Shown here: piece after piece, positions 3,653 to 7,144 of the stretch
Numbering within the stretch: the stretch's first letter is position 1
Layout of the letters: each line of letters opens with the position of its first letter
DNA from: Clostridia bacterium
GTDB taxonomy: Bacteria > Bacillota > Clostridia > Christensenellales > Borkfalkiaceae
DNA length: 64,000 nucleotides
Direction: 5' to 3'
Assembly: GCA_017501885.1 (NCBI GenBank)
Contig: JAFVWA010000224.1
Location: 21,226 to 85,225 of the forward strand
Made by a program: the position numbers and the translations under genes
Notes under the pieces: model-generated
Databases searched by the model: none
What the model saw: only the letters and a program-made list of their open reading frames with translations
What the model was told of the DNA's origin: nothing

Positions 3653-3853
3653 TTAAAAAAATTTTCTGCCAAGCAAATAGTCTGCAGACACTTCAAAGTA
3701 ATCTGCTAATTTTACGATATAGGTAGCCTTAGGCTCGTTGATTCCACGTTCCCAAAAATCAATTGCTTTTTGACTTACGCCAATTTGTTTTGCTAATTGC
3801 TGTTGCGATAAATTTTTTTCCAAACGCAACTCTTTAAGAATACTCGATAACAT
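3653..3853 (-). CDS. XRE-family helix-turn-helix transcriptional regulator
   Basis: 66 aa. LSQQQLAKQIGVSQKAIDFWERG is a classic Cro/C1-type HTH. No SD. TATAAT (3866-3861) ends 7 nt before the ATG, a leaderless geometry. Confidence 0.85.
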   Translation of the reverse strand: MLSSILKELRLEKNLSQQQLAKQIGVSQKAIDFWERGINEPKATYIVKLADYFEVSADYLLGRKFF

Positions 3854-3865
3854 TATTTAAATTAT

Positions 3866-3945
3866 AGAAGAAATCTTCTCAAAATAGTTGACAAAGAAGA
3901 AATCTTCTTGTAGAATAATAAAGAACATAAGAAGAAAACTTCTTA
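3866..3945. promoter_or_regulatory. three operator-like palindromes, consensus AGAAGAAAWCTTCT
   Basis: Copies at 3866-3879, 3894-3909 and 3928-3945. Copy 1 overlaps the XRE -10. Copy 2 fills the spacer of the plus-strand promoter. Copy 3 lies just downstream of the predicted TSS. Confidence 0.7.
3888..3916 (+). promoter_or_regulatory. consensus sigma-A promoter of the PH-domain/MACPF cassette
   Basis: TTGACA (3888-3893), 17 nt spacer, TAGAAT (3911-3916). GGGAGG SD at 3954-3959. Confidence 0.75.
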
Positions 3946-3968
3946 AATTGTTCGGGAGGTAAAATAAA

Positions 3969-4556
3969 GTGAGTAGGTATGTAGAAAACAATCTCGGTAG
4001 AGGCGAAGAAATCGTCTTGAAGGCAAAGAAAAGCTTTTGGTGCGTAGTTCCACAAATTGTATGGTTTGTGTTAATGGTTGTCCTTTTCTTCGTTCTTAAA
4101 AATGTGTTGAGTGAACCAAGAGAACCTGAAACTCGTGAAGAACTTCTTCGTGTAATGGCTGGCGAAACATTGGTAAGTCCGATTGTGGAGTATTTATGGA
4201 TTCTTATTATTGTTGGCTTGATTCCATTGATCATTAGATTGATCGTTCTTTGGGGTATGAACCTTGCAGTAACTAACAAGAGAGTTCTTGGTAAAATCGG
4301 TGTTCTTAAGATTCAAGCACTTGATTATCACATTGAAAAAGTAGATAACGTATCATTAAAGGCTGGTTTCTTAGGAAATCTTTTCCACTATCATACTGTA
4401 GTAGTTAAGGGCGGTGGAGATAACGCTGAAATTAAGTTTATCGGTATTTCTAATGCTAATCAATTTAAAAATGCTATAAACGAAGCGATTGAAAAACATG
4501 CTGATGAAGCAAGAAAGCAACAAGCTGCTGAAATAGCAAAGGCTATGGGCAGATAA
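3969..4556 (+). CDS. bacterial PH-domain (bPH_2, YdbS/YdbT-like) membrane protein
   Basis: GTG start. Two TM helices followed by the LAVTNKRVLGKIGVLK...GNLFHYHTVVV pattern typical of the bPH_2 fold. Confidence 0.75.
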   Translation: MSRYVENNLGRGEEIVLKAKKSFWCVVPQIVWFVLMVVLFFVLKNVLSEPREPETREELLRVMAGETLVSPIVEYLWILIIVGLIPLIIRLIVLWGMNLAVTNKRVLGKIGVLKIQALDYHIEKVDNVSLKAGFLGNLFHYHTVVVKGGGDNAEIKFIGISNANQFKNAINEAIEKHADEARKQQAAEIAKAMGR

Positions 4557-4572
4557 TTACATGTTCACACAT

Positions 4573-4607
4573 CATAAAAGCAGGGTTTTCCCTGCTTTTA
4601 TGATTTT
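4573..4607 (+). terminator. intrinsic terminator/attenuator between the PH-domain gene and the MACPF gene
   Basis: 13-bp perfect stem CATAAAAGCAGGG / CCCTGCTTTTATG with a GC core and a U-rich 3' side. There is no room for a promoter before the SD at 4616-4622. Confidence 0.65.
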
Positions 4608-4627
4608 AGATAAGCAAAGGAGAAATT

Positions 4628-7144
4628 ATGAGTAAAAAATTAAAATATATATTATGTATCTTACTTGGGCTAATAAGCGCGTTGAGTTTTACCGCTTGTA
4701 GTTTTGGTGCAGATGACAACGGGATAGGCGACATTTCGGGAGAGATAACTAAGTTAAACGCGCCCGCAAACGTTAGGGTTGAAAATAATATAATCAAATG
4801 GAGTAGCGTTTCTGATGCAGGCTCTTATATCGTGCAAATTGGTGATGAAAGCCATCAAGCAACTACTACTTCTTTAGAATATCCTATTTCGTCACTACTT
4901 TCTGAAAGCGCAAGTGGACTTTACGTAAAGGTAAAGGCTTTGCCAAGTAGTTCGCTTTTATTTAGTGAATCGGACTGGTCGCAAGTTTACGGACCTGTAA
5001 ACTACGTGGTTTCTACACCATCTGTAAACCCCGATGGTTTTGCTGACGCTTATGCAAGCAACGGCTTAGGTAGAACTATAAATATGATTACCGCAACTGA
5101 TTTTGAATCTTGGAGTGGTTCGGTTTCTATCTTCGATACTTCTAAACTTTATAAAATAAGTCTTATTGAAGAAAGGATTGGCAAACAAGAAGCCGTTTAC
5201 TATTCGGGTAATGATTTTAGCGAATTGGCTGAAAAATGGTCTGTTAAAACGAGTGCGAAAACGAATAGAACGGCAGGCGTAAAAGTTCCACAATATGCTT
5301 TAGGGCTATCCGCAGGCTTTTCCATTAGTGGTGCAAGCGGATACGAAGTAGCAAAGAAGTCTGAGACGCAACAATTTTTCTATAAACTTCGTCAAAACTT
5401 AGTTGGTAAAAGAGTTGAAGTTTCAGGATATAAACAAACGGGAACATTTTCTAACATTTTATCTGAAACCTTTTTAAGCGATGCTCAAAGAGTAAATAAC
5501 GGAACGCTTACCGCTAAAGATTTTATCGAAGTTTATGGCACTCACGTTATTATGTCTGCATACTACGGTGGCGCTATTGAAGCAAACTATTATAGCGTAG
5601 AACATAAAAATGAAGAAAGTAGAGATTGGTATTCAAACTTAGAAACGACGCTTACGAGCGCTCTTACAATAGGCGACGTAAACGCCGGCTTTGAAAATGG
5701 ATCTTCTATTGACTTTACTAAATTTAACAGTAGCACGCTTGGTAACAAAACTACTTATTTTAACGCAAAAGCAATAGGTGGCTCAAGTAGAAGTTTTGGC
5801 AATATGGAAACCTTTGCTCAAAACTATTCATCGTGGGCAGAAAGTGTTAACGAAGACACCTATTCTCTAATAGACGTGCCAGACGGAAGTCTTTATTGTG
5901 TATGGGATTATCTTCCTGCTGAATACGCTAACGCTAAGGCTATACTAAACGAATACTTAGTAAATAGTTGTAGCGATTACTACTTAGAAATTTGTGATAA
6001 AATAGGCAAAATAACTGCAAAAGACAACGTTACTTTTGATATTGAAACTTCTACTCTTAACGTAGACCTTAAAGAGTTTTATGCTACGGGGGAACTTACC
6101 AATATAAGTAACGGCACTTTCGAAAACGGCATACTTACCATTTATCCTGCATTTAATGGCCAAAAAGTAGAAAACGTTGTTATCGAAGGATTATATATGA
6201 CTGACGATAGTTTAGGTGTTCCTATTACAACAACTCTAAACGGTTTATCAATTAAATTCCACGAGGCATGGAACAGAGACGTTAACGTAACTATAAAAAA
6301 CATGGGTTGGATAGCAGTAGATGGTTGTTCTGCGCTTGATTTTTCTGCGTTAAATGAAAATTGCGTTGCCAACGTTTGTTTTGAGGGCGAGAATTTAATA
6401 AAAGGCTACAACGGAGCTAACGGAGCATCGGCAGGGCAAAATGGTTTTGATGGTGGCTCGGGAATAGTTGCTAATAATTTAAATCTTTATGGCGATGGCA
6501 AGATAACCATTTTTGGTGGTAATGGCGGAAATGGTGCAACTGGTTATGACGGGGCAACAGGAACGGAAAGTAAAGATCCAACTCAAGGTGGTAAAGGAGG
6601 AGATGGCGGTAAAGGTGGCAACTGCATAAAGGCAAAAACTACAACACTATATTTAATCAATTATTACTTTGTTGGTGGAAATGGTGGCGATGGTGGAACT
6701 GGCGGTAAAGGTGGCAACGGATTCCCTATTACATATAGAGGTGCAGATAATAATCCGGACTCATTTAGAGTTAGATTCCGTGGGGCGAAAGCGGGTAATG
6801 GCGGCAATGGCGGTAATGCCGGAGAGCCTGGAATCTCCTCCAATGAAAATGCTGTTTTTGGAAACGGTGGAAACGGCGGAAATGGAGGTCGTGGCGGTAA
6901 TAGTGGTTATTACTATAACGGATTTGGAAGCGTTTGGCTTTTTGCACCTGGAAATGGTGGAAATGGTGGCGATGGCGGCAATGGTGTGGTTGCAGGAACT
7001 CATGGCTCAGGAGGTTTATCTGGCTTAAAGATTAACAGAGAAACAGACGGGATATTAGGAACAAAATTTGACGATGACGGATCAAAATATGGGATTTATG
7101 CAAAAAATGGTTCAGACGGAAAAGATGGGGAAGTTATTGCATGA
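4628..7144 (+). CDS. MACPF-domain lipoprotein with N-terminal FN3-like module and Gly-rich C-terminal region
   Basis: Lipobox LSFTAC. The MACPF signature Y-G-T-H-V-x6-G-G (YGTHVIMSAYYGG) is at aa 303-315 (nt 5534-5572). Two amphipathic Ser/Thr/Gly-rich clusters flank it, and a WAESV...LIDVP...VWDYLP end motif follows. From aa ~593 there are blocks of GGNGGxGG. Confidence 0.8.
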   Translation: MSKKLKYILCILLGLISALSFTACSFGADDNGIGDISGEITKLNAPANVRVENNIIKWSSVSDAGSYIVQIGDESHQATTTSLEYPISSLLSESASGLYVKVKALPSSSLLFSESDWSQVYGPVNYVVSTPSVNPDGFADAYASNGLGRTINMITATDFESWSGSVSIFDTSKLYKISLIEERIGKQEAVYYSGNDFSELAEKWSVKTSAKTNRTAGVKVPQYALGLSAGFSISGASGYEVAKKSETQQFFYKLRQNLVGKRVEVSGYKQTGTFSNILSETFLSDAQRVNNGTLTAKDFIEVYGTHVIMSAYYGGAIEANYYSVEHKNEESRDWYSNLETTLTSALTIGDVNAGFENGSSIDFTKFNSSTLGNKTTYFNAKAIGGSSRSFGNMETFAQNYSSWAESVNEDTYSLIDVPDGSLYCVWDYLPAEYANAKAILNEYLVNSCSDYYLEICDKIGKITAKDNVTFDIETSTLNVDLKEFYATGELTNISNGTFENGILTIYPAFNGQKVENVVIEGLYMTDDSLGVPITTTLNGLSIKFHEAWNRDVNVTIKNMGWIAVDGCSALDFSALNENCVANVCFEGENLIKGYNGANGASAGQNGFDGGSGIVANNLNLYGDGKITIFGGNGGNGATGYDGATGTESKDPTQGGKGGDGGKGGNCIKAKTTTLYLINYYFVGGNGGDGGTGGKGGNGFPITYRGADNNPDSFRVRFRGAKAGNGGNGGNAGEPGISSNENAVFGNGGNGGNGGRGGNSGYYYNGFGSVWLFAPGNGGNGGDGGNGVVAGTHGSGGLSGLKINRETDGILGTKFDDDGSKYGIYAKNGSDGKDGEVIA
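6404..7141 (+). repeat. in-frame Gly-rich coding repeats (GGN/GGD/GGK triplets separated by short beta-strand-like segments)
   Basis: An identical 20-mer GGTGGAAATGGTGGCGATGG occurs at 6674-6693 and 6956-6975. There are several further near-copies. Confidence 0.8.

Follow-up and report, generated by a model that had tools for sequence, protein, structure and literature searches.

To our knowledge, MACPF toxins that shape gut communities have so far come only from Bacteroidales, in which they are called BSAPs. BSAP producers are known to protect themselves by a resistant variant of the receptor, not by an immunity protein. The BSAPs are surface lipoproteins that join a MACPF domain to a C-terminal domain, and in BSAP-1 the latter is the receptor-binding determinant (PMC12853789). 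PH-domain proteins of the YdbS/YdbT type take part in the export of membrane-active leaderless bacteriocins and in tolerance to them (PMC8657885). Here we examine a locus at positions 3653-7144 of a 64,000-nucleotide window (the whole stretch of DNA that was analysed, from contig JAFVWA010000224.1 of the Clostridia bacterium assembly GCA_017501885.1), in which genes for an XRE repressor, a bPH_2 membrane protein and an 838-amino-acid (aa) MACPF lipoprotein lie side by side. An initial annotation of this DNA had read the last two as a candidate pore-forming effector and its possible self-protection or membrane-docking partner. We favour, with moderate confidence, two separate units that adjoin: an autoregulated XRE-bPH_2 module, and a Bacillota MACPF pore-forming lipoprotein of which the bPH_2 protein is not a dedicated partner.

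The three open reading frames (ORFs) lie where the initial annotation had placed them (XRE 3653-3853, minus strand; bPH_2 3969-4556 and MACPF 4628-7144, plus strand), and their domain types were confirmed by Pfam matches above the curated cut-offs: HTH_3 at 66 bits (cut-off 23), PF03703 at 38.2 bits (cut-off 22) and PF01823 at 38.1 bits (cut-off 21.5, E 2.4e-9, aa 263-409). The bPH_2 protein has the two transmembrane (TM) segments ascribed to it, at aa 25-43 and 76-94 in a hydropathy scan, and its PH domain (aa 99-170) follows both. The locus sits between QueH and a NagA-like gene. The same arrangement is found in a second strain of the species (L010, GCA_054265995.1, 98% nucleotide identity), and the agreement of two independent assemblies rules out an assembly artefact. 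When signals of horizontal transfer were considered, the GC content did not stand out from the flanks; only the tail of the MACPF gene, rich in Gly codons, departs from theirs. The features of the module and of its junction with the MACPF gene are as follows.

3653..3853, minus strand: XRE/HTH_3 repressor gene, 66 aa, HTH domain alone (Pfam HTH_3)
3861..3866, minus strand: putative -10 element TATAAT of the XRE gene, by direct reading of the sequence
3866..3879, unstranded: operator-like palindrome O1, AGAAGAAATCTTCT, a direct repeat plus inverted repeat
3888..3916, plus strand: sigma-70-type promoter TTGACA-17-TAGAAT of bPH_2, 11/12 matches
3895..3908, unstranded: operator-like palindrome O2, within the spacer of the bPH_2 promoter
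3930..3943, unstranded: operator-like palindrome O3, AGAAGAAAACTTCT, 3' of the -10 of the bPH_2 promoter
3969..4556, plus strand: bPH_2 (YdbS-like) membrane protein gene, 195 aa, GTG start
4571..4604, plus strand: terminator/attenuator hairpin with a 15-bp perfect stem and a UUUU loop, followed by an interrupted U-tract
4616..4622, plus strand: ribosome-binding site (RBS) AAAGGAG of the MACPF gene, read from the sequence, 12 nt 3' of the hairpin

We collected 46 homologues of bPH_2 and examined the genomic context of eight. Three contexts (L011, L012/L013 and L014) encode a bPH_2 protein 65-68% identical to that of the window, together with a 66-aa XRE, the same promoter and, at matching positions, the same three operators. 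In L011, L012 and L014 a hairpin lies directly 3' of the bPH_2 stop codon, and the genes beyond it are unrelated: terminase and portal genes in L011, EamA in L012/L013 and a D-Tyr deacylase in L014. More distant copies (53% identical, L130 and L136) each have a divergent XRE as partner too, again without MACPF, and one at 46% identity (L131) has neither XRE nor MACPF gene nearby. The window XRE is 76-79% identical to the bPH_2-paired XREs of L011, L012 and L014 and resembles the MACPF-linked XRE of L001 weakly, at about one third of positions in a global alignment. A MACPF gene is present in none of the six other module contexts (L011, L012/13, L014, L129, L130, L136), which come from at least six assemblies. 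The recurrence of the module with its own hairpin and without MACPF indicates that XRE, bPH_2 and terminator form a self-contained unit. The hairpin that the initial annotation had placed between the two genes is thus present, yet it belongs to the XRE-bPH_2 module as its own terminator. A YdbT-like gene with three bPH_2 domains was found neither in window positions 1-12000 nor in any module copy, a metagenome scan for the bPH_2 module returned two distant relatives only, and PADLOC gave no defence-system match for the MACPF or the bPH_2 protein.

The view from the MACPF genes points the same way. Pfam was run on 149 ORFs beside 43 non-redundant MACPF loci of the family; ABC_tran was matched by 19 ORFs, FtsX by 11, HTH_3 by nine and bPH_2 by two. 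Both bPH_2 matches come from one locus, L020, and are a canonical YdbS (160 aa) and YdbT (507 aa, three bPH_2 domains), so that bPH_2 stands beside one of 43 other MACPF loci. XRE genes are another matter. Among loci with at least 500 nt of upstream sequence, an XRE adjoins the MACPF gene in 9/15 that score at least 150 bits and in all six at 250 bits or above, so in this clade XRE control, unlike bPH_2, is the rule. The closest MACPF homologue (P0002 in L001, 61% identity) lies directly behind a different divergent XRE, without a bPH_2 gene, and has its own operator-like palindrome, TATAGCAAATTGCTATA, in a TTGACA...TATAAT spacer directly 5' of the MACPF gene. The initial annotation had made its pairing hinge on co-occurrence of the two genes in related genomes; they are not co-conserved, and we find the idea of a protecting or docking PH-domain partner unsupported.

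L001 (Ga0318466_10010687, 51476-64111) and L010 (JAZLPK010000015.1, 22785-39372) are probably parts of one contig. If they are, the species would have in P0002 a second MACPF lipoprotein paralogue with an XRE of its own, about 16-29 kb upstream of the window start.

The control region between the divergent XRE and bPH_2 genes is compact. Its top-scoring site is the bPH_2 promoter, which is kept in L011, L012, L014 and L129. The AGAAGAAATCTTCT palindrome occurs in three copies of 14 bp each, starting at 3866, 3895 and 3930, and the copies hold their positions in five species. The XRE -10 element abuts O1, base 3866 being common to both, and ATTATAG at this position is retained in the same four loci that keep the bPH_2 promoter. 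As the TATAAT lies 7 nt from the XRE ATG, the XRE mRNA is suggested to be leaderless. With these putative operators the bPH_2 promoter looks repressible by XRE, in agreement with the first part of the earlier claim that both genes share one repressible promoter. Its use by the MACPF gene would depend on read-through. The MACPF start codon lies 24 nt 3' of the hairpin (-23.1 kcal/mol, z = -6.3; a consensus terminator scan made no call for it), and a promoter scan of 3916-4628 gave no site with more than 9/12 matches. Two candidates were rejected: TATGAT at 4599-4604, with neither a -35 element nor a TG extension and too near the RBS, and CTGAAA-18-GATAAT at 4528-4557, unconvincing with 9/12 matches and a position 5' of the hairpin. 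Since neither site convinces as a promoter of the MACPF gene, its transcripts most plausibly arise by read-through of the hairpin, which in this species probably puts the gene under XRE control.

The 838-aa protein has been deposited in identical form as hypothetical protein IKB98_09190 of a Clostridia bacterium metagenome-assembled genome (MAG). Its parts are the following.

4628..7144, plus strand: MACPF lipoprotein gene, 838 aa
4628..4699, plus strand: lipoprotein signal peptide, lipobox FTAC, with Cys24 the predicted lipidated residue
4748..5011, plus strand: FN3-like beta-sandwich module (aa 41-128), more conserved in the close clade than any other part
5045..6013, plus strand: MACPF domain, about aa 140-462 (Pfam, model, Foldseek)
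5210..5365, plus strand: TMH1/CH1 cluster, aa 195-246, between strands b1 and b2, predicted membrane-inserting hairpin 1
5534..5572, plus strand: MACPF signature YGTHVIMSAYYGG, aa 303-315 (Y-G-T-H-x7-G-G)
5606..5746, plus strand: TMH2/CH2 cluster, aa 327-373, between strands b3 and b4, predicted membrane-inserting hairpin 2
6038..6406, plus strand: C-terminal domain, subdomain 1, aa 471-593, beta-rich, without a Pfam family
6407..7141, plus strand: C-terminal domain, Gly-rich part, aa 594-838, in which (GGX)n runs alternate with short beta-strands

The features that the initial annotation had read from this protein held up. The N-terminus, MSKKLKYILCILLGLISALSFTAC, is the sole hydrophobic segment of the protein in a hydropathy scan, and Cys24 is invariant in an alignment of eight sequences and at least 90% conserved in one of 67. 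The order MSKKLK-hydrophobic-FTAC agrees with the PROSITE PS51257 rule. The module at aa 41-128 was modelled as a confident beta-sandwich (predicted local distance difference test score, pLDDT, 75-86); Pfam gave no match for it, and its top Foldseek matches are FN3 domains at weak significance (7jgu, probability 1.0, E only 0.02). The same module (profile positions ~25-117) occurs in 14-28 tandem copies in four giant proteins of 1600-3600 aa (P0089, P0184, P0120 and P0165), and these tandem copies mark it as an autonomous repeat without a Pfam family. The signature residues G304, T305, H306 and G314 are invariant in family alignments.

We modelled aa 125-470 with AlphaFold from the 67-sequence alignment (pLDDT 86.5, predicted TM-score 0.85); a full-length model from eight sequences was poor (pLDDT 50), aa 41-128 excepted. 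Core strands in the domain model run at aa 179-194, 247-265, 310-326 and 374-383, with helical clusters of lower confidence between them. The two Ser/Thr/Gly-rich clusters noted earlier coincide with TMH1 and TMH2. Both hold alternating hydrophobic and small-polar stretches, such as LGLSAGFSISGASGYEV in TMH1, and the TMH2/CH2 cluster is 36% Ser/Thr/Gly. The structural comparison that had been proposed with Plu-MACPF and Bth-MACPF recovered the MACPF fold with both among the matches: Foldseek placed the domain model nearest to GNIP1Aa (6fbm, E 5.4e-14, TM 0.57), and its other matches include Bth-MACPF (3kk7, E 2.5e-13), Plu-MACPF (2qp2, E 6e-12), Mpf2Ba1 (8b6u and 8b6v, about 5e-11), pleurotolysin B, TgPLP1, perforin and complement proteins. 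There were 78 matches at E<=1e-3, and the top 50 listed are all MACPF or CDC structures. On the strength of the Pfam match and the model we consider the MACPF assignment solid; the 838-aa protein, a predicted lipoprotein, keeps the hallmarks of pore formers, with a predicted pore activity.

A word-indexed search returned nine relatives of the MACPF protein only. In an exhaustive profile search the number of cluster representatives was 3053 at E<=1e-3, 1056 at 1e-10 and 297 at 1e-30. The family comprises hundreds of 50%-identity clusters, and its hosts are almost all gut and rumen Bacillota. The earlier remark that MACPF proteins are uncommon in Gram-positive bacteria is therefore not true of uncultured gut Bacillota, given the 297 clusters at the strictest threshold. 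In species-representative genomes a degenerate DNA pattern for the YGTH...GG motif picked out 114 loci, of which 41 reach 80 bits or more with the family profile. With few exceptions the 41 carry the labels Clostridia, Christensenellaceae, Ruminococcus, uncultured Bacilli, Coproplasma, Erysipelotrichaceae, Acholeplasmataceae, Izemoplasmatales and Mycoplasmatota. Bacteroidales MACPFs reach 17-40 bits only against the same profile, and none of the papers open to search describes this MACPF family.

Two loci of at least 80 bits (L045 and L051) are labelled Acidiphilium, and one relative that is 43% identical (P0004; GX638_17495, partial, on a 3-kb contig) was deposited as 'Crenarchaeota archaeon'; all three are probably mis-binned contigs rather than real cross-domain transfers. 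One family member (P0006, L002/L003) is encoded on a small mobile element, together with a Mob_Pre relaxase, a serine recombinase and part of a tyrosine integrase. The P0006 gene is preceded by genes for a 271-aa lipoprotein and a 206-aa protein and followed by an XRE.

Some MACPFs of the family, from uncultured Bacilli, Mycoplasmatota and Christensenellaceae, are short (about 500 aa) and carry ordinary Sec signals instead of lipoboxes (L025, L039, L059, L070, L073 with two copies, L086, L111, L118, L121 and L125). They adjoin genes for MacB-type fusions of 684-926 aa that unite an ABC ATPase with an FtsX permease, and MacB-type ABC transporters are the commonest neighbour of the whole family. 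We regard these transporters as candidate export or immunity partners of the short MACPFs.

The C-terminal domain (aa 471-838) has no Pfam relative and no significant sequence match in the PDB. The Gly-rich tail is there as described before: Gly makes up 31% of aa 590-838, where (GGX)n or (GXG)n runs occur six times. A home-made hidden Markov model (HMM) found the domain in 49 of about 150 family representatives, and in some, for example P0078, P0093 and P0094, the match is to subdomain 1 alone and has low composition bias. The Gly-rich part also occurs in P0002, P0007 and a non-MACPF lipoprotein of L129. A weak PDB match to the Gly-rich Obg N-domain (1lnz, E 0.86), a lead only, hints at a polyglycine-II-type structure. 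By analogy with BSAP-1, the C-terminal domain most likely selects the target.

The L129 lipoprotein shows the module in another setting. There the order is gyrA, XRE, bPH_2 (68% identical), hairpin, a 661-aa lipoprotein gene (L129:3219-5204) and terminase. This lipoprotein has a lipobox, FAGC, and Flg_new repeats in place of the MACPF domain; its C-terminal half matches the HMM of the window's C-terminal domain (E 4.5e-17, high composition bias), and compared with L011, which is syntenic, its gene amounts to an indel of 2.1 kb. In both L129 and L011 (L011:5681-12579) the module lies between gyrB-gyrA and same-strand phage-like genes (terminase large subunit, P22/SU10-type portal and others), so that it may mark the edge of a prophage or of a domesticated phage-like element. 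The window itself encodes a second surface lipoprotein at 42293-44092 (599 aa, lipobox LTAC, no Gly-rich domain), which shares 35% identity with the L129 lipoprotein in its N-terminal, Flg_new-type region and whose repeat-rich C-terminal half resembles, by eye, BspA-type leucine-rich repeats.

In two MACPF loci a membrane protein of another kind follows the XRE promoter and precedes MACPF, in the slot that bPH_2 fills in the window (L007:4773-5963 and L020:2121-2957). Neither protein has a Pfam family. That of L020 (279 aa) has two predicted TM segments, that of L007 one long hydrophobic stretch, and the C-terminal regions of both are Lys/Glu-rich and coiled-coil-like. They have no detectable homology to bPH_2, and homology to each other was rejected (E 3.7). 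In L020 the YdbS and YdbT pair (L020:2118-5505) lies 0.5-3 kb from the XRE and from the operon of slot protein and MACPF, a proximity that could be chance, given the roughly 300 neighbour slots surveyed.

From these data a mechanism can be proposed. XRE would repress both divergent promoters. Upon derepression bPH_2 would be made, and a fraction of the transcripts would read through the hairpin into the MACPF gene. The MACPF precursor would be exported and then lipidated at Cys24, so that the FN3-like stalk, MACPF and C-terminal domain would be displayed on the cell surface or shed. Once the C-terminal domain had bound a target membrane, MACPF would oligomerise and TMH1 and TMH2 would insert as a beta-barrel pore. 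Possible targets are a competing bacterium, a wall-less Mollicute, a eukaryotic grazer or a host membrane. In relatives of the window protein a different divergent XRE would drive the MACPF gene directly.

Several points weigh against the proposal of two separate units with a pore-forming lipoprotein. For every family member pore formation, lipidation, expression and target are predictions, and certain MACPF proteins are non-lytic (PMC5483515). A pore former tethered beneath a Gram-positive wall would still have to reach its target. The C-terminal domain is poorly modelled (pLDDT <50 for aa 726-838), and its targeting role is drawn by analogy. Read-through is deduced from the missing consensus promoter, and the gene may use a non-consensus one. 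Finally, L129 and the window have the same junction, ATCATAA...TTATGATTTTA-AGGAG: in both species the outer stem is ATCATAA/TTATGAT and the inner stems differ, and TTTA, AGGAG, 5 nt and ATG follow. The link in L129 between module and downstream lipoprotein may therefore be more than accidental.

That junction is also part of the case for bPH_2 and MACPF as a dedicated pair of effector and protector, or docking partner, under one XRE-repressed promoter, with the hairpin setting the ratio of abundant protector to scarce toxin. The two genes lie on the same strand 71 nt apart, MACPF lacks a promoter of its own, and the arrangement is kept in two strains; L129 repeats the series of module, hairpin and lipoprotein with the shared Gly-rich C-terminal domain, L007 and L020 place other hydrophobic membrane proteins in the slot, and L020 has YdbS and YdbT close by. 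Moreover, YdbS/YdbT-like proteins are needed for leaderless bacteriocin export and tolerance (PMC8657885), which fits the statement in the initial annotation that links them to resistance against membrane-active antimicrobials. We nevertheless consider a dedicated pair unlikely. The six other module contexts are without MACPF, bPH_2 is found in one of 43 other MACPF loci and not beside the closest MACPF homologue, and the hairpin is the native terminator of the module wherever the module occurs. The slot proteins of L007 and L020 are homologous neither to bPH_2 nor to each other, and the BSAP precedent is a changed receptor. At the level of gene context, then, a dedicated bPH_2 partner of MACPF is not supported, and bPH_2, if co-induced, would at most protect the membrane in a generic way or act as an accessory. 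L129, L007 and L020, two or three instances in all, and the YdbS/YdbT literature leave room for a looser accessory role of a small membrane protein, or for a link between the module and lipoproteins with the Gly-rich C-terminal domain. A broader version of the idea takes XRE, bPH_2, attenuator hairpin and a lipoprotein with a Gly-rich C-terminal domain as a modular, inducible 'surface weapon' of gut Clostridia. Here a repressor released by stress would give rise to the PH-domain protein, which would protect the membrane or assist release, and metered read-through would supply a lipid-anchored effector with an exchangeable head (MACPF here, Flg_new repeats in L129). The Bacillota MACPFs, as the counterpart of the BSAPs in Gram-positive and wall-less bacteria, would act on neighbouring microbes, eukaryotic grazers or host membranes, and MacB-type ABC transporters would serve the Bacilli and Mycoplasmatota clade as export or immunity partner. 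As a whole this scheme seems improbable to us.

Two further explanations concern the nature of the units themselves. The lipoprotein could be non-lytic, a MACPF repurposed for adhesion, envelope remodelling or nutrient capture in which the FN3 and Gly-rich parts are scaffolding. Non-lytic MACPF proteins exist, as said above, and domains that accompany the family (Flg_new, GLUG and leucine-rich repeat neighbours) are those that Firmicute surface proteins typically have; an immunity gene is not apparent, and Bth-MACPF and Plu-MACPF, which are among the best structural matches, are not known to be lytic. Yet the signature Gly residues and both amphipathic clusters of TMH length are kept across the family, the best structural match, GNIP1Aa, is an active pore-forming insecticidal toxin, tight XRE repression is typical of costly or toxic genes, and the MacB-type ABC transporters to which the Bacilli clade is linked often have toxins as their substrates. 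We hold a non-lytic role to be unlikely. Alternatively, the XRE-bPH_2 module could be a phage-derived moron or switch with lipoprotein genes as cargo at a recombination hot-spot, so that the arrangement reflects mobile-element architecture and not shared function. The bPH_2 protein matches phrog_3707, 'membrane-flanked domain' (E 1.7e-21), of the category 'moron, auxiliary metabolic gene and host takeover'; the module stands before terminase and portal genes in L011 and L129, the lipoprotein gene of L129 is an indel, and P0006 resides in an element with Mob_Pre, integrase and serine recombinase. Against this, tblastn found neither protein in 50,697 phage records (INPHARED) or 72,556 plasmids (PLSDB), scans of IMG/VR with both were likewise empty, the surroundings of the window locus show neither phage nor integrase nor repeat boundary, and in L012, L014 and L130 the module sits between housekeeping genes. 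A phage origin of the arrangement is accordingly very unlikely in our judgement, and we retain the reading of two adjoining units.

Two features lie outside these units. Downstream of MACPF is one shared with the convergent gene:

7150..7180, unstranded: bidirectional terminator (-18.5 kcal/mol) common to the MACPF gene and the convergent amidohydrolase (NagA-like) gene

Further along, a THF (tetrahydrofolate) riboswitch (RF01831, 77.9 bits) occupies window positions 9556-9649, 5' of the gene for an ECF-type (energy-coupling factor) transporter S-component. The S-component gene probably starts further downstream than the mechanical ORF call at 9580, which overlaps the riboswitch.

What emerges is a large Bacillota MACPF family with an architecture of its own: a lipobox or Sec signal, an FN3-like stalk, MACPF and an unannotated Gly-rich C-terminal domain. 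Its hosts in animal guts are uncultured Clostridia, Christensenellaceae, RF39-like Bacilli and Mycoplasmatota. Should its members be active pore formers, perforin-type warfare, or defence against eukaryotic grazers, would extend to the other dominant gut phylum, and one would have to ask by what means a cell with a single membrane puts such a toxin to use without harm to itself. With the PH-domain protector unsupported as a general rule, attention shifts to the ABC transporters and to MACPF together with its C-terminal domain. The main value of the present data lies in the size and neglect of the family and in the leads to transporters and C-terminal domain; the PH-domain partnership adds little.

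Set against described systems, the regulatory module resembles the Cro/CI-type XRE modules that control phages and toxins in its small HTH_3 protein, divergent transcription, palindromes over the promoter and a probably leaderless repressor mRNA, and differs from them in that no anti-repressor partner or sensor domain is visible beside the window XRE. The bPH_2 domain stands in a 2-TM protein, as in YdbS/YdbT of B. subtilis and in DdE/DdF, LnqC/LnqD and Orf7/Orf8 of leaderless-bacteriocin loci, proteins with an implied part in the export of membrane-active antimicrobials or in tolerance to them (PMC8657885). Those leaderless-bacteriocin loci combine a YdbS-like protein with a YdbT-like protein of three bPH_2 domains, usually with an ABC transporter and small peptide toxins, whereas here a solitary YdbS-like protein accompanies an XRE without YdbT, and the cargo would be an 838-aa protein and not a peptide.

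The MACPF domain has its best structural matches in the insecticidal proteins GNIP1Aa (Mpf1Aa) and Mpf2Ba1 of Gram-negative bacteria, and GNIP1Aa is also a weak sequence match (E 0.065). In contrast to the window protein, these are soluble and secreted, at about 16% identity, and have another C-terminal domain and neither lipid anchor nor FN3 module. Plu-MACPF (2qp2) and Bth-MACPF (3kk7), from Proteobacteria and Bacteroidota, are bacterial proteins of the same fold with different C-terminal domains. Neither is known to be lytic. Bth-MACPF comes from a gut symbiont (PMC2954219).

The nearest relatives in architecture are the BSAPs, and the comparison has two sides. BSAP producers are diderm; the window host is a monoderm (a Clostridia MAG of the Bacillota), the protein has no outer membrane to reach and no lipoprotein export signal, and no genes for outer-membrane proteins or lipopolysaccharide adjoin the MACPF gene of the window. 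Unlike the BSAPs, it has an FN3-like stalk, an XRE repressor upstream and a Gly-rich C-terminal domain unrelated to theirs. With the nearest NCBIfam model, the BSAP equivalog BSAP5a_fam, it scores 44 bits against a cut-off of 500, which speaks for a shared domain and not for membership of the BSAP family. Nevertheless BSAP-1 to BSAP-5 and the window protein have in common a lipoprotein signal with an invariant Cys, a MACPF domain, a separate C-terminal domain and a gut habitat, and by this analogy the MACPF lipoprotein would be to Gram-positive bacteria what the BSAP toxins are to Bacteroidales.

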